DNA from: Escherichia coli
GTDB lineage: Bacteria; Pseudomonadota; Gammaproteobacteria; Enterobacterales; Enterobacteriaceae
Strand: one strand, 5' to 3'
Assembly: GCF_003334785.1 (NCBI RefSeq)
Contig: NZ_QOWV01000002.1
Length of the DNA: 64,000 bases
A program made the translations under genes and the position numbers. Within the stretch, counting starts at the first letter, position 1. Each line of letters opens with the position of its first letter. The notes beneath the pieces are model-generated. The model worked only from the letters and a program-made list of their open reading frames with translations. It had not been told where the DNA came from and did no database searches. This document shows, piece after piece, positions 26,887 through 58,593 of the stretch.

Positions 26887-27333
26887 AGTAAGTACAAAAC
26901 CTATTCGTTGTATGACAAATGTCACAATTCGATCATGGATAAATCGGGGCAAAAATGCAATGTTGCAGCACTATTTATCTCATATTATTTGAGGGTAATA
27001 ACCTCACATTATCCCTGAATTAAAAGTGGTAATAATAAAACATTATTTAAGAAATATCGCATGTGGAGGCGCAATATTAAATATTGTCAACCTAAAGAAA
27101 CTCCTAAAAACCATATTGAATGACACTTAATATAATTCTTAAAAATAGCCAATTACCGAATTGTTATCTTGCCTGCTATTCCGTTAGCTGTAACACTTCC
27201 TCCTGCATTATTGGAAAGCCAATATTCAATTACCATAATGTCACCTTATATTCGGAAGTTAATTTCCGTAATAACCCTTTCTCATCAACGACTGCATGCT
27301 GAGAGGGTGTGAAAAATTAAACTAAATCAGTGT

Positions 27334-27372
27334 ATTGGTAGCTAAAAAGCCAGGGGCGGTAGCGTGTCTGGA
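27334..27372 (+). promoter_or_regulatory. JUMPstart element with ops (GGCGGTAGCGTG at 27355-27366), RfaH-dependent antitermination site
   Basis: agccaggggcggtagcgtg motif about 190 bp upstream of wza; the same motif recurs at 51845-51864. Confidence 0.8.
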
Positions 27373-41935: not shown

Positions 41936-42021
41936 AATGCGAAACCGAGATGTAAATAACGACAAAAACAAAATTGGCCGTTTCGGTCAGGGCCAACTAT
42001 TGCCTGAAAAAGGGTAACGAC

Positions 42022-43392
42022 ATGAAAAAATTAACCTGCTTTAAAGCCTATGATATTCGCGGGAAATTAGGCGAAGAACTGAATGAAGATATCGCCTGGC
42101 GCATTGGTCGCGCCTATGGCGAATTTCTCAAACCGAAAACCATTGTGTTAGGCGGTGATGTCCGTCTCACCAGCGAAACCTTAAAACTGGCGCTGGCAAA
42201 AGGTTTACAGGATGCGGGCGTTGACGTGTTGGATATTGGTATGTCCGGCACCGAAGAGATCTATTTCGCCACGTTCCATCTCGGCGTGGATGGCGGCATT
42301 GAAGTTACCGCCAGCCATAATCCGATGGATTATAACGGCATGAAACTGGTGCGCGAAGGGGCTCGCCCAATCAGCGGTGATACCGGACTGCGCGACGTCC
42401 AGCGTCTGGCAGAAGCCAACGACTTTCCTCCCGTCGATGAAACCAAACGCGGTCGCTATCAGCAAATCAACCTGCGTGACGCTTACGTTGATCACCTGTT
42501 CGGTTATATCAATGTCAAAAACCTCACGCCGCTCAAGCTGGTGATCAACTCCGGGAACGGCGCAGCGGGTCCGGTGGTGGACGCTATCGAAGCCCGCTTT
42601 AAAGCCCTCGGCGCACCTGTGGAATTGATCAAAGTGCACAACACGCCGGACGGCAATTTCCCCAACGGTATTCCTAACCCGCTGCTGCCGGAATGTCGCG
42701 ACGACACCCGCAATGCGGTCATCAAACACGGCGCGGATATGGGCATTGCCTTTGATGGCGATTTTGACCGCTGTTTTCTGTTTGACGAAAAAGGGCAGTT
42801 TATCGAGGGCTACTACATTGTCGGCCTGCTGGCAGAAGCGTTCCTCGAAAAAAATCCCGGCGCGAAGATCATCCACGATCCACGTCTCTCCTGGAACACC
42901 GTTGATGTGGTGACTGCCGCAGGTGGCACGCCGGTAATGTCGAAAACCGGACACGCCTTTATTAAAGAACGTATGCGCAAGGAGGACGCCATCTACGGTG
43001 GCGAAATGAGCGCCCACCATTACTTCCGTGATTTCGCTTACTGCGACAGCGGCATGATCCCGTGGCTGCTGGTCGCCGAACTGGTGTGCCTGAAAGGAAA
43101 AACGCTGGGCGAACTGGTGCGCGACCGGATGGCTGCGTTTCCGGCAAGCGGTGAGATCAACAGCAAACTGGCGCAACCCGTTGAGGCGATTAATCGCGTC
43201 GAACAGCATTTTAGCCGTGAGGCGCTGGCGGTGGATCGTACCGATGGCATCAGCATGACCTTTGCCGACTGGCGCTTTAACCTGCGCACCTCCAACACCG
43301 AACCGGTGGTGCGCCTGAATGTGGAATCGCGCGGTGATGTGCCGCTGATGGAAGCGCGAACGCGAACTCTGCTGACGTTGCTGAACGAGTAA
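42022..43392 (+). CDS. cpsG: Phosphomannomutase (colanic acid copy)
   Basis: ORF track start 41974 trimmed to the ATG at 42022 ([15 protein letters not shown]); 456 aa; TASHNP active site. Confidence 0.9.
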
Positions 43393-46334: not shown

Positions 46335-46550
46335 GTTCCGACAACGGTTGCCGGATGCGGCGTAAAACGCCTTATCCGTCCTACGGTTCTGTGCTCGGGA
46401 CCTGTAGGCCTGATAAGACGCGTCAGCGTCGCATCAGGCACTGAATGCCGGATGCGGCGTGAACGCCTTATCCGGCCTACGGTTCTGTGCTCGGGTCTTG
46501 TAGGCCTGATAAGACGCGTCAGCGTCGCATCAGGCAAAAAGCGGCAACGA
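46335..46550. repeat. Tandem REP/BIME cluster (two ~100-bp near-identical units)
   Basis: Unit gccggatgcggcgt..cgccttatccg..cctacggttctgtgctcggg..cttgtaggcctgataagacgcgtcagcgtcgcatcaggca appears twice. Confidence 0.85.
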
Positions 46551-50673: not shown

Positions 50674-51567
50674 ATGACGAATTTAAAAGCAGTTATTCCT
50701 GTAGCGGGTCTTGGGATGCATATGTTGCCTGCCACTAAGGCGATTCCCAAAGAGATGCTACCGATCGTCGACAAGCCAATGATTCAGTACATTGTTGACG
50801 AGATTGTGGCTGCAGGGATCAAAGAAATCCTCCTGGTAACTCATGCGTCCAAGAACGCGGTCGAAAACCACTTCGACACCTCTTATGAATTAGAATCTCT
50901 TCTTGAACTGCGCGTGAAGCGTCAACTACTGGCGGAAGTTCAGTCCATCTGCCCGCCGGGCGTGACCATTATGAACGTACGTCAGGGCGAACCTTTAGGT
51001 TTAGGTCACTCCATTTTGTGTGCACGACCCGCCATTGGTGACAACCCATTTGTCGTGGTGCTGCCAGACGTTGTGATCGACGACGCCAGTGCCGACCCGC
51101 TGCGCTACAACCTTGCAGCCATGATTGCGCGCTTCAACGAAACGGGCCGCAGCCAGGTGCTGGCAAAACGTATGCCGGGTGACCTCTCTGAATACTCCGT
51201 CATTCAGACCAAAGAACCACTGGATCGTGAAGGTAAAGTCAGCCGCATTGTTGAATTTATCGAAAAACCGGATCAGCCGCAGACGCTGGATTCAGACATC
51301 ATGGCCGTTGGTCGCTATGTGCTTTCTGCAGATATTTGGCCGGAACTTGAACGCACTCAGCCTGGTGCATGGGGGCGTATTCAGCTGACTGATGCCATCG
51401 CTGAACTGGCGAAAAAACAGTCTGTTGATGCCATGCTGATGACAGGTGACAGCTACGACTGCGGTAAAAAAATGGGTTATATGCAGGCATTTGTGAAGTA
51501 TGGACTACGCAACCTGAAAGAAGGGGCGAAGTTCCGTAAAGGTATTGAGAAGCTGTTAAGCGAATAA
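50674..51567 (+). CDS. galF: UTP-glucose-1-phosphate uridylyltransferase-like regulatory subunit GalF
   Basis: ORF track start 50662 trimmed to the ATG at 50674 ([14 protein letters not shown]); 297 aa. Confidence 0.9.
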
Positions 51568-51831
51568 TGAAAATCTGACCGAATGTAACGGTTGATAAGA
51601 AAATTATAACGGCAGTGAAGATTCGTGGCGAAAGTAATTTGCTGCGAATATTCCTGCCGTTGTTTTATATAAACAATCAGAATAACAACGAGTTAGCAAT
51701 AGGATTTTAGTCAAAGATTTCCAGGATTTTCCTTGTTTCCAGAGCGGATTGGTAAGACAATTAGCGTTTGAATTTTTCGGGTTTAGCGCGAGTGGGTAAC
51801 GCTCGTCACATCGTAGACATGCATGCAGTGC

Positions 51832-51870
51832 TCTGGTAGCTGTAAAGCCAGGGGCGGTAGCGTGCTGAAA
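51832..51870 (+). promoter_or_regulatory. JUMPstart element with ops (GGCGGTAGCGTG at 51853-51864) upstream of the O-antigen operon
   Basis: aagccaggggcggtagcgtg about 60 bp upstream of wzx. Confidence 0.8.
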
Positions 51871-51923
51871 TTATAAAGTCATTCTTATAGAACATCGCAT
51901 TTCAATAATATAATTACACCTAA

Positions 51924-53180
51924 ATGAATAGGATACAACGTGTGCATAATTATTTAAGGCTTAAAGATAAAATAAAAAACGTATTTTTAGGGTTATATAT
52001 ATTGCAGTTATTTAATTATATCGCGCCATTGGTAATTATCCCTATCCTGATAAAATATATTGGGTTGGGGGAATATGGGGAATTAGTCTATATTACATCT
52101 ATTTATCAAATAGTGGCTTTGTTTATTGATTTTGGCTTTACTTACACAGGACCTGTGGTTGCTGCGAGACATAAATGTGAGATCCAAAATTTACAGCGCT
52201 ATTACTCAATAGTTGTTCTTTTAAAATCATTGCTTTTTATAATTGCATTAACATGTGTATTTTTATTGTGCAGATTAAATATAGTCCACTTGTCATTTTT
52301 GGGGTTTTTGTCAATTTTTCTATGCTCTATTGGTAATATAGTATCGCCCAATTGGTTTTTGCAGGGGATTGGTGATTTTAAAAAACTTTCATACTCTCAA
52401 GTAATAGTGAGAATAACATTGTTTATCATGCTTCTTGTTTATGTCTGTAGTGGCGGAGATAATGTTTTTATCTTAAGTTTTTTACAAAATGCAACATTAC
52501 TCATATGCTGTATATACTTATGGCCAAATATTCATATTAGCCATGTTGTTCATCTTAAACCTAATGAATGCATTGTGGAATTTAAGAAGGCAGGAAATGT
52601 TTTTATTGGCGTAATAGGTACGATTGGTTACAATGGTCTAATTCCTGTGTTAATTGGAAACCTTTGCGGTAATACGAGTCTTGGTGTTTTTTCAATCGTT
52701 CAAAAAATGACAACAGCATGTCAAAGCCTAATTAATCCAATATCACAGTATATGTTATCACAAGTTTCAGAAATTAAACCTCAAGATGAACTGTTTTATT
52801 ATAGAATTAAAAAAAGTTTTTTTGTGCATTTAACAATTAGCATAATTGCATGTTTATGTTATATGGGGTTAGGGCAATATGTGGCGACTTTTATAGGTAA
52901 AGTTGACGTTTCATTTGTTATTATTTTATATGCGTCAGTAATTACAATTTTTTCATCTTTAAATAATGTCCTTGGTATACAGTTTCTTATACCGACAGAT
53001 AATGTAAAAATACTGCGAAGTATAAATGTTATAGCGGGAATTATTGTTGTTAGTTTGTCCTGGCTGTTAATATCACGCTTTGACATTCTGGGGGGGGTTT
53101 TATTAAATCTAATTGGTGAGTTTCTTGTATTCAGTATGCTAGCTTTTATTGCCCATCGTAAGTGGGGAGCGAGAGTATAA
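51924..53180 (+). CDS. wzx: O-antigen flippase Wzx
   Basis: 418 aa multi-TM protein in a low-GC region; Wzx-like N-terminus and W-F-x-Q-G motif (NWFLQG). Confidence 0.75.
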   Translation: MNRIQRVHNYLRLKDKIKNVFLGLYILQLFNYIAPLVIIPILIKYIGLGEYGELVYITSIYQIVALFIDFGFTYTGPVVAARHKCEIQNLQRYYSIVVLLKSLLFIIALTCVFLLCRLNIVHLSFLGFLSIFLCSIGNIVSPNWFLQGIGDFKKLSYSQVIVRITLFIMLLVYVCSGGDNVFILSFLQNATLLICCIYLWPNIHISHVVHLKPNECIVEFKKAGNVFIGVIGTIGYNGLIPVLIGNLCGNTSLGVFSIVQKMTTACQSLINPISQYMLSQVSEIKPQDELFYYRIKKSFFVHLTISIIACLCYMGLGQYVATFIGKVDVSFVIILYASVITIFSSLNNVLGIQFLIPTDNVKILRSINVIAGIIVVSLSWLLISRFDILGGVLLNLIGEFLVFSMLAFIAHRKWGARV

Positions 53181-54523
53181 TGAAAGTGAAGGCGGTTCCT
53201 GCTATTACATTCTATTTAAGTTTAATGCTGACAATTTTAGTGTTACTGTTTGGTAATGAACCAAATAAATCACAATATATTCTTGTTATAGCAACGATAA
53301 CAGTTTTTTATATCGCGTATATCACTAATAAAATAACTTCTCCGGCCAGCCTTCTCGTTATATCATCTTTTGTGTTTTTAGGTTGTCGACCTTTATTATC
53401 TTTGTTTGCAAACTATGATTACAGGATTGCCGATTGGTTTATTGAAGGATATATGGATGACGATGTGATTATGGCTAACTATGCTATAACATTAATGTAT
53501 TATGGTTATACATTGGGACTAATTCTATGCAGAAATACTGAAAAAATTTATCCGCATGGATCATATCCAGAGAAACAATTGCTAAAAATAAAGTTTCTTT
53601 TGACTTTATTTTTTCTGGGTTCGATAGGTATGGTTGTGAAAGGGATATTCTTTTTTAACTTTATAGAATCTAATAGTTATGTTGATATATATCAATCAAA
53701 TATAACAACGCCAATAGGTTATGATTTTCTGTCTTATTTGTTTTATTGTTCTTTTTTCCTTATATGTGCGTTTCATATACAGTTCAGAACAAATAAAAAA
53801 TTTCTTTTTATTGCGATATGCATTGCTGCATTTAGCACCTTGAAGGGTAGTCGTAGTGAAGCTATAACGTTTCTTTTAACGGTTACATGTATATATTTTA
53901 ATGAAGTAAAGACAAGAAACTTACGTTTGCTGATTACAATGATTTTTGTTTTTAGCGTCATTTTTGTGATTAGTGAATTTATCTCAATGTGGCGCACTGG
54001 AGGGAGTTTTATTCAATTAATGCAGGGTAATAATCCTGTTATAAACTTTGTATACGGCATGGGAGTATCATATCTTTCCATTTATCAATCAGTAAAACTA
54101 CAACTATTGTCAGGGGGGTATAATGTTACCTATCTATTCAGCCAGTTAATAATAACTTGCTCGTCAATATTTAATGTTAAATTGAGCTTGCCGGAAATAA
54201 GCTATAGCCATTTGGCCTCATACACAGCAAACCCAGAACTATATAATCTTGGGTTCGGACTTGGGGGAAGTTATTTAGCAGAATCGTTTTTAGCATTTGG
54301 TCTTATTGGGTGTTTCATAATACCCTTTTTACTTTTACTTAATTTAAATGTATTGGAAAAATACACAAAAAACAAACCAATCATATATTTTGTTTATTAT
54401 AGTGTGTTGCCACCTATATTATTCACACCAAGAGAGACTTTGTTCTATTTCTTCCCCTATCTTGTCAAAAGTATATTTGTTGCTTTTTTAGTTACATTAT
54501 ACATCCAGTATAAAAAGGATTGA
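53180..54523 (+). CDS. wzy: Putative O-antigen polymerase Wzy
   Basis: Multi-TM low-GC protein second in the cluster; ATG at 53180 overlaps the wzx stop (ORF track starts at the GTG at 53162); assigned by exclusion and topology. Confidence 0.6.
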   Translation: MKVKAVPAITFYLSLMLTILVLLFGNEPNKSQYILVIATITVFYIAYITNKITSPASLLVISSFVFLGCRPLLSLFANYDYRIADWFIEGYMDDDVIMANYAITLMYYGYTLGLILCRNTEKIYPHGSYPEKQLLKIKFLLTLFFLGSIGMVVKGIFFFNFIESNSYVDIYQSNITTPIGYDFLSYLFYCSFFLICAFHIQFRTNKKFLFIAICIAAFSTLKGSRSEAITFLLTVTCIYFNEVKTRNLRLLITMIFVFSVIFVISEFISMWRTGGSFIQLMQGNNPVINFVYGMGVSYLSIYQSVKLQLLSGGYNVTYLFSQLIITCSSIFNVKLSLPEISYSHLASYTANPELYNLGFGLGGSYLAESFLAFGLIGCFIIPFLLLLNLNVLEKYTKNKPIIYFVYYSVLPPILFTPRETLFYFFPYLVKSIFVAFLVTLYIQYKKD

Positions 54524-54528
54524 CGAAA

Positions 54529-55389
54529 ATGTCAGAAAAAAATGTCAGCATAATAATCCCAAGTTATAACAGGGCTCATATTCTTAAGGAGGTCATACCA
54601 AGTTATTTTCAGGATGAGACTTTAGAGGTAATAGTTATCAATGATGGATCAACAGATAATACAAATAGTGTATTAGCTGAACTGAAGGAAAAATATTCTC
54701 AATTAGTTATTTTAGAAAATGATACGAACAAAAAACAGATGTATTCTAAAAACCGAGGGATTGAAATAGCCAAAGGGAAATATATTTTTTTTGGTGATGA
54801 TGACTCTTACCTCTTACCCGGTGTTATATCTCGGTTATTGGCTACAAAATATGAGACAGGCGCTGATGTAATCGGCGCAAGAATACTCTATATGAATAAT
54901 AACGAGAAAACAATTGAAGATTGCATAAATCGACATAAAACAGAGGGGCGTTTTGTTAGTGATTTAAATAGATTGGATTTTAGTTATACATGTGATTTGG
55001 ACCATCCGATTGAATGTTTTTATGCACAGTCTATTATTCTAGCTGAAAGGGAACTAATATCGAAATATCGATTTGATATATCTTATACGGGAAACTGCTA
55101 TCGTGAGGAAACTGATTTCATGTTATCTCTTTTTATAAAAAATAAAAAATTTATATATGATTCAAAGGCTCTGTTAATAAATTTACCTCCACGAAAAGCG
55201 ACGGGAGGGGCAAGAACAGCTAATCGATTAAAATATCATTATGAAAGTTGCATAAATAATTATAGATTTTTAAAAAAATATAATGATAATTTGAATCTTC
55301 TTTCAGGACAAAAGCATGCTATATTTTACCGACAGTGTCAATTCGTTCTGCTAAAAATTAAGTCGTTTATCGGGAAGTTTTTAAAATGA
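54529..55389 (+). CDS. Glycosyltransferase family 2
   Basis: SIIIPSYNRAHIL and INDGSTDNT (GT2 DxD region); start could instead be the TTG at 54520. Confidence 0.75.
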   Translation: MSEKNVSIIIPSYNRAHILKEVIPSYFQDETLEVIVINDGSTDNTNSVLAELKEKYSQLVILENDTNKKQMYSKNRGIEIAKGKYIFFGDDDSYLLPGVISRLLATKYETGADVIGARILYMNNNEKTIEDCINRHKTEGRFVSDLNRLDFSYTCDLDHPIECFYAQSIILAERELISKYRFDISYTGNCYREETDFMLSLFIKNKKFIYDSKALLINLPPRKATGGARTANRLKYHYESCINNYRFLKKYNDNLNLLSGQKHAIFYRQCQFVLLKIKSFIGKFLK

Positions 55390-56417
55390 TTGTATATATT
55401 GCCGCGTATAATGGTTCAGGAGGGCAAGGTGGGGTGGAAAGGGTTGTTGCCCAACAATGTAACATTCTTAAAAATTTGGGGGTTAAAGTCATTATACTTG
55501 ATAAAGCATACTTCAAAATTTCTAACAAAATTCGTAACAAAAAAATACAAGTAGCACTTTATCCAATATTAGTTTCTCTTTATTTAACCTTACAAAAATT
55601 ACGTGGCGTGACGTTTAAAGTTATTGCGCATGGCTATTGTTCTCCTTTTTATAGGAATGACATCTTAATAGCTCATGGCAATATGAAATGTTATTTTCAA
55701 ACAGTCATGAAAAAAAAACCTAATCGATTGTCCGGCAGTGGTCTTTTATCTTTCTATGAGCGTTTGGCTGGATCATTCTCAAAAAATATCTGGGCTGTTT
55801 CAAATAAGGTTAAAAGTGAATGGAATGAGCTTTACAATATTAATTCACATAAAATTAAAGTTGTTCGAAATTTTATAAATCTTGAACAATTTGATTGCAC
55901 TGATGTTAATGAAGCACAATATGTGACATTTGTCGGGCGATTGGAAAAAGGAAAAGGAATAGATGATCTGTATTACATATGTAAAAATCTGCCAGATACT
56001 TCCTTCCATTTAGTTTCAAGTATTCCCGCCCCACAAAATTTTGCTTCGCTAAATAATGTTCTGACCAGCATTGCTGTCCCCTATGCGAAAATGCCAGAAA
56101 TATTTAAGAAATCCAGAGTACTTATTTTACCGTCCTATTATGAAGGATATGAGCTGGTTACTATTGAAGCGCTATGCTGTGGTTGCCCTGTGATAGGCTA
56201 TAACGTTGGTGCAATTAGAGAGTTGTATGCTGAAAGTTTTCCTGGCGTGTTTATTGCCAATAATAAAGAAGATTTAGCACAAGTAGCCTACGAACTAATT
56301 AGTCTTGATAATGAAAAATATTATCATTTGAGACAAACTATTTATAGCAAGCGTGAGCTTTTTTCTGAAGAGAGATATGCGGAAATTTTAACGGCGGCAT
56401 TTAATGAAAAAAAATAA
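55386..56417 (+). CDS. Glycosyltransferase group 1 (GT4)
   Basis: 343 aa; C-terminal E-x7-E-like region (EGYELVTIEALCCGCPVIG). Confidence 0.7.
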   Translation: MIVYIAAYNGSGGQGGVERVVAQQCNILKNLGVKVIILDKAYFKISNKIRNKKIQVALYPILVSLYLTLQKLRGVTFKVIAHGYCSPFYRNDILIAHGNMKCYFQTVMKKKPNRLSGSGLLSFYERLAGSFSKNIWAVSNKVKSEWNELYNINSHKIKVVRNFINLEQFDCTDVNEAQYVTFVGRLEKGKGIDDLYYICKNLPDTSFHLVSSIPAPQNFASLNNVLTSIAVPYAKMPEIFKKSRVLILPSYYEGYELVTIEALCCGCPVIGYNVGAIRELYAESFPGVFIANNKEDLAQVAYELISLDNEKYYHLRQTIYSKRELFSEERYAEILTAAFNEKK

Positions 56418-57549
56418 GAAACTATGTCTCATTTCAATTAACTCATATAATGAACTTACCGGAGGAGGAGTATATTTACGTACGCTTGTTAGTTTTCTAC
56501 AAAAACAGAATGTTAATTTAACACTTATTGATAAAAAATCTTCAGGTAAACTATTCGAAGACAATACTTTTCAACATATATCATTTATTAAAGGTAAACG
56601 TCAGGATATTATATCCAGGCTTTTTTTTATACCATCATTTTATGTCCCTTATATTTTCTCAATAATTAAAATTTTACGGAAGCAAGATATTCTAGCTTTT
56701 CACAACTCTCGACTTGGATTGTTATGTCTGCTTTTTAGAATACTCATGCCCCATAAAAAGATCATATTGTTTACGGATAACTTCGAATATGACTTAATAA
56801 GACAAAAAGATAAAAACATAACTACTTTTGTTGAAAAAATAATTGTTTATCTCAATGAATTTATCGGGCTTAAGAATTCACATTTAGTTAGCTATATTAC
56901 CCGGCAAGATAAAAATGCAATGGATAAATTTTATGGGGTTAAAAAAAGCAGAAATTTAATTCTCCCTGTGATATTTAGTAGAGAAAAGCCAACTGATGTA
57001 TTATCAGCTCACTTTATTAATGAGTATAATCGATTGAATAATGATAATAGGAAAAAAGTAGTATTTACTGCATCTTTTGATTTTTTTCCAAATATAGATG
57101 CTGCCAACTATGTTTTAAATGCAGCAAAGTCGAATAATGATTATTGCTATATTTTGGCAGGTAGGAAAAGTACTACTTTGAATCTTCCTGATTTGGATAA
57201 TTTATTTTTTTTCGATAATCTATCTAATAGTGAAATGTCATATTTATTATCTGCTTGTGATATTTTTTATTCTCCTATAGTTTTAGGAAGTGGAATGAAA
57301 ACAAAAATTGCAGAAGCGCTATCATATGGATTATATATTTATGCGACAGAGCATTCCTTAATCGGCTATGATGAAATTATAAACAACAAGGAGTGTGTTA
57401 AAAAAATCTCACATTTGGATGAGGAATTTCCTAAAGATTTCAAGGTGAAAAGTATCAATAAACAGCTAATAATGTCTTATCAGCAAAAATATTATTCACA
57501 TTATCGGTTTAATGGCCATGAACTTGACATGATAAATATTGACGATTAG
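56404..57549 (+). CDS. Glycosyltransferase group 1 (GT4)
   Basis: 381 aa; GT-B-like layout. Confidence 0.65.
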   Translation: MKKNKKLCLISINSYNELTGGGVYLRTLVSFLQKQNVNLTLIDKKSSGKLFEDNTFQHISFIKGKRQDIISRLFFIPSFYVPYIFSIIKILRKQDILAFHNSRLGLLCLLFRILMPHKKIILFTDNFEYDLIRQKDKNITTFVEKIIVYLNEFIGLKNSHLVSYITRQDKNAMDKFYGVKKSRNLILPVIFSREKPTDVLSAHFINEYNRLNNDNRKKVVFTASFDFFPNIDAANYVLNAAKSNNDYCYILAGRKSTTLNLPDLDNLFFFDNLSNSEMSYLLSACDIFYSPIVLGSGMKTKIAEALSYGLYIYATEHSLIGYDEIINNKECVKKISHLDEEFPKDFKVKSINKQLIMSYQQKYYSHYRFNGHELDMINIDD

Positions 57550-57565
57550 TTAGTGGAGATATAAT

Positions 57566-58573
57566 ATGAACATATTAGTAACTGGTGGTGCTGGATATAT
57601 CGGATCTCATACGGCTATTGAATTACTAAATGCAGGTCATGAGATTATCGTTCTGGACAATTTCAGTAATGCTTCATACAAGTGTATCGAAAAAATAAAA
57701 GAAATTACTCGACGTGATTTTATAACAATTACAGGAGATGCTGGGTGTAGGAAGACACTCTCCGCTATTTTCGAGAAACACGCCATAGATATAGTTATTC
57801 ATTTTGCTGGCTTTAAATCTGTTTCAGAGTCTAAAAGTGAACCCTTAAAGTATTACCAAAATAATGTTGGAGTGACCATTACTTTATTACAGGTAATGGA
57901 AGAGTACAAAATTAAAAAATTTATCTTTAGTTCATCTGCGACAGTCTATGGTGAACCAGAGATAATTCCAATTTCAGAAACAGCTAAAATTGGAGGAACT
58001 ACGAATCCATATGGCACATCGAAATATTTTGTTGAAAAAATTCTAGAGGATGTTAGTTCCACGGGAAAACTGGATATAATTTGCTTGAGATATTTTAATC
58101 CTGTCGGTGCTCATTCTAGTGGTAAAATAGGTGAAGCTCCATCTGGTATCCCTAATAATCTTGTCCCTTATTTATTGGATGTTGCAAGTGGTAAACGTGA
58201 TAAATTATTTATTTATGGCAATGATTATCCTACTAATGATGGAACAGGTGTAAGAGATTTTATTCATGTTGTTGACTTAGCGAAAGGTCATTTGGCTGCA
58301 ATGAATTATTTAAGTATCAATTCGGGATATAATATCTTTAATCTTGGTACAGGAAAAGGTTATTCAGTGCTTGAATTAATCACTACATTTGAAAAATTAA
58401 CAAACATTAAGGTCAATAAATCTTTTATAGAGAGAAGGGCAGGGGATGTTGCGTCTTGTTGGGCTGATGCAGATAAAGCTAATTCTTTATTGGACTGGAA
58501 AGCCGAACAAACTCTAGAACAGATGTTATTGGACTCGTGGCGTTGGAAAAAAAATTATCCAGACGGATTCTGA
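57566..58573 (+). CDS. gne: UDP-hexose (Glc/GlcNAc) 4-epimerase, Gne/GalE family
   Basis: 335 aa; MNILVTGGAGYIGSH Rossmann motif, YGTSK catalytic Y-x3-K. Confidence 0.85.
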   Translation: MNILVTGGAGYIGSHTAIELLNAGHEIIVLDNFSNASYKCIEKIKEITRRDFITITGDAGCRKTLSAIFEKHAIDIVIHFAGFKSVSESKSEPLKYYQNNVGVTITLLQVMEEYKIKKFIFSSSATVYGEPEIIPISETAKIGGTTNPYGTSKYFVEKILEDVSSTGKLDIICLRYFNPVGAHSSGKIGEAPSGIPNNLVPYLLDVASGKRDKLFIYGNDYPTNDGTGVRDFIHVVDLAKGHLAAMNYLSINSGYNIFNLGTGKGYSVLELITTFEKLTNIKVNKSFIERRAGDVASCWADADKANSLLDWKAEQTLEQMLLDSWRWKKNYPDGF

Positions 58574-58593
58574 ATAAAAAAGGTTTCAGTTTT

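Follow-up and report, generated by a model that had tools for sequence, protein, structure and literature searches.

The 39-bp JUMPstart sequence was reportedly described by Hobbs and Reeves in 1994. RfaH, once bound, excludes NusG and suppresses both pausing and termination. All E. coli O-antigen clusters have JUMPstart as their conserved left flank (PMC4732683). RNA polymerase pauses at U11 of the ops element (position 51863 in the sequence analysed here), and in the paused bubble the non-template DNA adopts a hairpin in which C3 pairs with G8 (51855:51860 here) and T6 (51858 here) is flipped out. G5 and T6 are read by the N-terminal domain of RfaH, and recruitment is abolished by the ops substitutions G4C, G5A, A7T, and G8C (PMC5995543). 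The refolded C-terminal domain of RfaH binds S10, which makes up for a missing Shine-Dalgarno sequence (PMC6391919). The ops sites of the RfaH regulon, at rfaQ/waaQ, hlyCABD, kps region 3, and the F tra operon, share with the site described below the core GGCGGTAGnnTG, a location in the leader, the non-template strand, and the same trans factor, but they differ in upstream context, with leader lengths of 88 to 846 nt.

For one O6 operon, that of UPEC strain CFT073 (O6:K2:H1), Hustmyer et al. (2022) mapped RfaH, RNA polymerase (RNAP), sigma70, H-NS, and StpA (PMC9765446). The wzx ops at 2400402–2400391 on the minus strand is one of eight RfaH-binding sites in that genome (PMC9765446, Data set S2). 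The wild-type RfaH ChIP-seq peak (2385330–2400704, 30.6-fold) starts at this ops and is gone in the ΔrfaH strain; it covers wzx through wzzB, and RfaH remains on the polymerase that far (PMC9765446). RNA-seq together with a sigma70 peak places the start of the transcription unit at 2400469, 67 nt upstream of ops, giving a 138-nt untranslated region (PMC9765446). The RNAP travelling ratio in ΔrfaH is 0.34 of that in the wild type (PMC9765446, Data sets S2 and S3); with RfaH, polymerase occupancy in the distal part of the operon is about 3-fold higher. The operon is coated by H-NS-StpA. At the wza ops of the same strain, RfaH was bound only in Δhns ΔstpA cells (PMC9765446), because the wza promoter is silenced.

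The sequence analysed here, referred to as the window, is a 64,000-nt stretch of E. coli DNA that spans the colanic acid, galF, O6 O-antigen, and gnd region. The colanic acid genes wza to wcaM are followed by galF, with the O6 cluster downstream. Between galF and wzx a JUMPstart sequence was identified, and another copy lies at the head of the colanic acid operon.

51826–51864, plus strand: JUMPstart, 39 bp (Rfam RF01707, model positions 1–38 of 38)
51853–51864, plus strand (the non-template strand, same as wzx): ops (operon polarity suppressor), GGCGGTAGCGTG, exact consensus match
27328–27366, plus strand: first JUMPstart copy (RF01707, 57.3 bits), at the head of the colanic acid operon
27355–27366, plus strand: ops of the first JUMPstart, exact; no third match in the window when one mismatch is allowed

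The copy upstream of wzx scores 60.0 bits against a gathering score of 35 for RF01707, with an E-value of 2.6e-11 for the whole window. Its ops forms the 3′ end of JUMPstart inside aagccaggggcggtagcgtg (51845–51864) and agrees with the consensus GGCGGTAGnnTG, including the T11-G12 pause dinucleotide. The exact 12-mer is expected about 0.008 times by chance in 64 kb on both strands (2 × 64,000 / 4^12), so chance does not account for ops; with up to one mismatch allowed, 0.35 matches were obtained in dinucleotide shuffles. The end of ops is separated from the wzx ATG at 51924 by 59 nt, and the galF-wzx spacer is untranslated; the open reading frames that overlap it are all 36 codons or shorter. 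Compared with the Rfam family, the element is a full-length match with the conserved stem-loop, the same orientation, and the same placement just 5′ of a polysaccharide cluster; it carries one additional loop base and shows no other difference of substance. The two copies in the window agree at 33 of 39 positions, with no difference in the stem, the spacer G, or ops, but the first lies 178 nt upstream of wza (27545).

A sequence-only reading of this stretch had placed GGCGGTAGCGTG at 51853–51864, called it part of a second JUMPstart/ops element about 60 bp before wzx, and recognised an O-antigen operon behind it. The motif search, the single other match, the measured gap, the RF01707 score, and the Polysacc_synt domain of the downstream gene all bear this out. 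The extent given, 51832–51870, is offset from the element: the canonical JUMPstart begins 6 nt earlier and occupies 51826–51864. We are highly confident that this interval is a JUMPstart sequence with its ops, situated in the 5′ untranslated leader of the O6 O-antigen operon, where it loads RfaH. It is a well-known regulatory site that was already known, and an identical copy has been characterised experimentally in CFT073.

Against an expectation of 1.2, the window contains eight copies of the 8-mer GGCGGTAG. The six extra copies, at 2282, 7582, 8092, 15889, 26768, and 40153, fall in mdtD, mdtB (twice), yegD, yegH, and wcaI; all six are intragenic and have no T11G12, and two are on the template strand. 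Intragenic sites of the GGCGGTAG type in CFT073 did not bind RfaH (PMC9765446). An upstream GGTAGC was considered as a second RfaH site and rejected, as other genera show GGTAAC, GGCAGC, GGTTGC, or GGTGAC in its place and these changes hit positions that are essential in ops.

The genes on either side of the element identify the locus.

50674–51567, plus strand: galF, housekeeping gene, left flank of the O-antigen locus (NCBIfam TIGR01105 equivalog, 685 bits; RefSeq annotation of a genome whose galF-wzx spacer is identical)
51924–62681, plus strand: O6 O-antigen operon (RefSeq annotation of genomes 99.8–100% identical over the cluster)
51924–53180, plus strand: wzx (Pfam Polysacc_synt, 2.7e-19; RefSeq "O6 family O-antigen flippase")
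53180–54523, plus strand: wzy (TIGR04370; RefSeq "O6 family" polymerase)
54529–55389, plus strand: GT2
55386–56417, plus strand: first GT4
56404–57549, plus strand: GT
57566–58573, plus strand: gne/galE (TIGR01179)
58594–59799, plus strand: second GT4
59789–61228, plus strand: manC
61311–62681, plus strand: manB
from 62845, extending beyond the end of the window: gnd

The operon is about 10.8 kb long and contains three to four glycosyltransferases. NCBIfam held no model matching the O6 Wzx, but the Pfam model did match. VE-F10, LR-64-2, and PEC399 match the window at every position between 51800 and 62700 (100% identity), and E. coli W is 99.8% identical to it there. Two RefSeq records labelled DH5alpha (NZ_CP026085.1 and NZ_CM135829.1) carry an O6, E. 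coli W-like O-antigen locus and not the K-12 O16 rfb cluster, and the strains are probably mislabelled.

Several other features of the window were recorded. The O6 manB shares 96.4% identity with cpsG of the colanic acid operon (42022–43392), and the central ~600 bp are 100% identical; the GC content of manB is 55% against 31% in the remainder of the O6 cluster, and manC and cpsB share only 66% identity. The manB/cpsG similarity suggests that these two genes, both for phosphomannomutase, have undergone gene conversion. Two Sib antitoxin RNAs (Rfam RF00113) are present on the minus strand in the mdtA-yegL interval, at 11037–11179 (142 bits) and 11366–11514 (149.5 bits), opposite annotated ibs type I toxin open reading frames. 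An "algC RNA" motif (RF02929, 78 bits) lies at 41968–42017 on the plus strand, immediately 5′ of cpsG in the colanic acid operon. A naRNA4/REP-type element (RF02564, 79.7 bits) occupies 46407–46477 on the minus strand in the gap between wzxC and wcaK.

The same serogroup cluster in CFT073 is 98.2% identical over 10.9 kb. The galF-wzx spacer (356 nt) matches that of CFT073 at 350 of 356 positions, and the identity is 100% from JUMPstart to the ATG, with ops at the same distance from wzx (−71 from the ops start). The six substitutions all precede JUMPstart. Two fall in the putative galF terminator hairpin, a third lies in the stretch from this hairpin to the −35 hexamer, and the other three are in the interval from the promoter to JUMPstart. 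The RfaH dependence claimed from sequence alone has been demonstrated, through the 30.6-fold peak and the travelling ratio of 0.34, for CFT073 DNA that does not differ from the window between JUMPstart and the ATG (PMC9765446). Absence of a transcript start between galF and wzx, or of polarity in an rfaH mutant, had been named as findings that would speak against this dependence; in CFT073 the sigma70 peak and the transcription-unit start are present, and polarity appears when rfaH is missing. An rfaH gene was found at 80% coverage or more in all 5426 complete E. coli genomes, including the carriers of the O6 locus at 99.8–100% identity, and although it lies outside the window it is very likely present in the genome from which the window comes.

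Nine galF-distal spacers were aligned (O6 twice, O16, O2, O7, O111, O157, and two untyped). Three conserved islands stand out, namely a putative terminator hairpin, a predicted promoter block, and JUMPstart, and the remainder diverges.

51606–51663, plus strand, with a T-rich tract at 51660–51668: putative galF terminator hairpin, GC-rich base CGGCAG/CUGCCG (fold −39.7 kcal/mol, z = −5.2 versus shuffles)
51733–51761, plus strand: predicted sigma70 promoter, −35 TTGTTT (51733–51738), 17-nt spacer, −10 GACAAT (51756–51761)
51788–51806, plus strand: small leader hairpin between promoter and JUMPstart, 7-bp stem, loop GGUAA (MFE and centroid folds)
51865–51923, plus strand: remainder of the 5′ UTR, serogroup-specific, 23.7% GC

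The terminator hairpin is kept in eight serogroup variants, with four pairs that show changes on both sides, and 51606–51668 is probably the intrinsic terminator of galF. It was found by folding and comparative alignment; a simple promoter and terminator scan did not flag it. Weak matches to miRNA families at 51594–51669 are artefacts of this hairpin.

The promoter hexamers are kept in O16, O2, O7, O111, and O157 (GATAAT in the last) while their flanks diverge. The comparison was extended to 11 loci, mostly from other species and genera of Enterobacterales, with two on contigs labelled as non-enterobacterial. There all loci but one (L063, with TTGTCT) keep the hexamers, the 17-nt spacer varies in sequence and is constant in length, and the block sits 90–96 nt 5′ of JUMPstart. 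Kept hexamers around a variable spacer of constant length are the signature of a sigma70 promoter. This promoter-like block, TTGTTT-17-GACAAT, also occurs at a fixed distance from JUMPstart in other Escherichia species, Salmonella arizonae, and Citrobacter. The simple promoter scan of the window missed 51733–51761 because its −35 hexamer matches at only three of six positions. The promoter and leader of the O7 operon are said to have been mapped by Marolda and Valvano in 1998.

Transcription of the operon is predicted to start at about 51766–51770, ~87 nt upstream of ops. The CFT073 start projects to window position 51786; the projection is approximate and compatible with this prediction. These data also bear on whether the element might itself be the promoter or transcription start of the operon. 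Its position between galF and wzx, near the first gene, would suit such a role. However, the promoter scan found no −35/−10 pair overlapping the element, a conserved promoter lies ~90 nt upstream, ops acts only once it has been transcribed (PMC5995543), and this role has already been refuted for the identical sequence of CFT073, where the sigma70 peak and the start of the transcription unit lie 67 nt ahead of ops (PMC9765446); we give it practically no chance of being correct. The sequence-only reading had similarly taken ops to mark the start of the operon, which does not hold: ops is a pause and loading site 67–87 nt inside the leader, downstream of the conserved promoter.

The small hairpin at 51788–51806 is not conserved in the Z226-1, O111, O157, and G8 spacers and is therefore probably dispensable. 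The whole leader folds no better than shuffled sequence (z = −0.24), and accordingly no global leader structure is claimed. A 23-codon open reading frame with a TTG start is present in the leader at 51768–51839 on the plus strand; its stop codon is the TAG in the GGTAGC of the JUMPstart 5′ half, 14 nt short of ops. No Shine-Dalgarno sequence precedes this frame, which starts near the predicted transcription start, and for these reasons it is probably a chance occurrence.

The base composition changes in steps across the locus. The GC content is 50.6% in galF, 39.1% in the spacer between galF and JUMPstart, 61.5% in JUMPstart, 23.7% in 51865–51923, and 31.2% in wzx; over 51924–59799 it is 31.4%, compared with 49.6% for the whole window. 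The proposal that the element marks the boundary where GC content drops is correct for the sharpest step, from 61% to 24% right after ops, but the fall already begins at the galF stop codon and JUMPstart itself is a GC-rich island.

Similarity between serogroups ends at 51864/51865, directly 3′ of ops. In an evenly spaced sample of 25 alignments from 4024 matching genomes, 18 stop at query position 296–298, which corresponds to 51863–51865 of the window, and in the spacer alignment the sequences 3′ of ops cluster according to the first gene. As judged from these alignments, the 3′ end of ops is the left edge of horizontally exchanged, serogroup-specific DNA. Because serogroup homology stops exactly at this point and the element serves as a universal PCR anchor, it could be imagined as an inert relic or recombination landmark at the edge of the O-antigen cassette, with no regulatory activity in this strain. 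We regard this as very improbable. The same class of 39-mer is found 5′ of wza, kpsM, and rfaQ, away from the cassette junction, and the element is invariant across genera while the adjacent spacer diverges. Moreover, rfaH is universal in E. coli, and the identical CFT073 copy is occupied by RfaH and required for processive transcription (PMC9765446).

Every one of the 5426 complete E. coli genomes has a match to the 39-mer, the median being three copies per genome. When one genome per species was scanned for exact occurrences of AGCCAGGGGCGGTAGCGTG, at least 120 loci were returned. Among the matches listed, most belong to Enterobacterales (Citrobacter, Enterobacter, Salmonella, Pantoea, Erwinia, Serratia, Rahnella, Pectobacterium, and others), with one from Aeromonas and a few on contigs with non-enterobacterial labels. 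A covariance model built from the AGCCAGGGGCGGTAGCGTG matches was run against the window and 0.89 Mb of fetched loci and detected no further, divergent copies.

The 5′ half of JUMPstart contains a hairpin, which is supported by the Rfam consensus structure and by the centroid fold.

51833–51851, plus strand: JUMPstart hairpin, CUGGU (51833–51837), 9-nt loop, GCCAG (51847–51851)

The last base of the hairpin is 12 nt upstream of the pause nucleotide, so that the stem end would be located at the opening of the RNA exit channel while the polymerase is paused. A spacing of 12 nt is close to that of exit-channel pause hairpins. Among the AGCCAGGGGCGGTAGCGTG matches listed, there are 104 Enterobacterales copies with distinct upstream contexts; all five stem pairs are kept in 98 of these, the loops measure 7–10 nt, and the 5′ arm varies solely as C/U opposite G. 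In a subset of 50 sequences, 98.4% of cells are paired, compared with 17–58% when the partner is slid. No double changes were seen in the stem of this subset, where the search pattern had fixed the 3′ arm and shuffles are uninformative. As the pattern included the 3′ arm, the counts of stem conservation do not amount to a covariation test.

The RfaH-binding sites of CFT073 show a range of upstream structures. The rfaQ JUMPstart has the stem CAGGU...GCCUG, a compensatory U:A to A:U change, and the kpsM JUMPstart has the standard stem. The ops sites of hly and c4518 are preceded by a longer hairpin, TTCTGGT(A/C)CCGG...CCGGAA, which is unrelated to the JUMPstart stem and ends 2 nt before ops. For the RfaH-binding sites of tssH and c1882, no clear equivalent hairpin was seen.

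These observations raise the question of whether structured RNA could be the main agent, with the JUMPstart hairpin, or a longer hairpin that pairs with ops, acting as an antitermination signal of the put/EAR type and DNA recognition by RfaH being secondary. Rfam does class JUMPstart as a cis-regulatory RNA with a conserved stem-loop. The stem survives in 98 of 104 distinct copies, where the only changes are C/U opposite G and preserve the pairing; the rfaQ stem carries a compensatory change; and hly and c4518 have a different hairpin whose end is nearly as far from ops. All of this points in the same direction. In addition, the centroid fold extends the hairpin, with ops RNA pairing with 51821–51832. 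We nevertheless consider this explanation improbable. RfaH recruitment has been reconstituted on minimal scaffolds and is abolished by single-base changes in ops positions 3–8, and in the crystal structure RfaH is bound to the hairpin of the non-template DNA (PMC5995543). The complex paused at ops is pre-translocated and biochemically distinct from pauses stabilised by an RNA hairpin (PMC11001881). Furthermore, tssH and c1882 bind RfaH without an obvious equivalent hairpin, and with the 3′ arm fixed in the scan, double changes could not have appeared.

Within the preferred reading, in which RfaH is loaded at the ops DNA, a lesser role for the hairpin can be envisaged. The nascent-RNA hairpin at 51833–51851 and the ops DNA may together form a two-part, RNA-plus-DNA loading signal, although we hold this idea only tentatively and think it rather unlikely. 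The hairpin could lengthen the ops pause, limit backtracking, or hold off NusG, Rho, or the ribosome until RfaH loads. The conserved pairing, the compensated rfaQ stem, and the analogous hly and c4518 hairpins are compatible with such a signal. Minimal ops suffices for RfaH recruitment in vitro (PMC5995543).

The following sequence of events is proposed for the O6 operon. Transcription would begin at the sigma70 promoter ~90 nt upstream, after galF transcription has terminated at its own hairpin, both steps being suggested by conservation. Having transcribed ops, RNA polymerase would pause at U11 (51863), as established in vitro, and the non-template GGCGGTAGCG in the open bubble would form a tiny hairpin (C3:G8) with T6 flipped out. 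Auto-inhibited RfaH would recognise this DNA hairpin and replace NusG on the polymerase, with release and refolding of its C-terminal domain, as established by structural work. RfaH would then ride the polymerase across the operon, with its GC content of 31%, and beyond it through gnd, ugd, and wzzB; for the identical CFT073 sequence, ChIP-seq has shown both the occupancy and the polarity. The travelling RfaH would suppress pausing, backtracking, and premature termination that depends on Rho and H-NS.

RfaH probably also recruits the ribosome to wzx. No Shine-Dalgarno sequence was found upstream of the wzx ATG at 51924, whereas such sequences are present before the internal genes wzy, GT2, and gne, a pattern in line with compensation through RfaH and S10. 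An in-frame GTG occurs at 51940, with AGGA at 51931–51934 at suitable spacing, and the true wzx start could lie five to six codons after 51924.

Apart from a possible contribution of the hairpin, which is a modest point, the element adds nothing new to the biology: its sequence has been studied directly in CFT073, and the mechanism is known at atomic resolution. The value of the element for annotation is that it sets the left boundary of the serogroup-specific O-antigen cassette, that it is the point where RfaH takes over transcription, and that it is the reason why an H-NS-prone operon of 31% GC is expressed.
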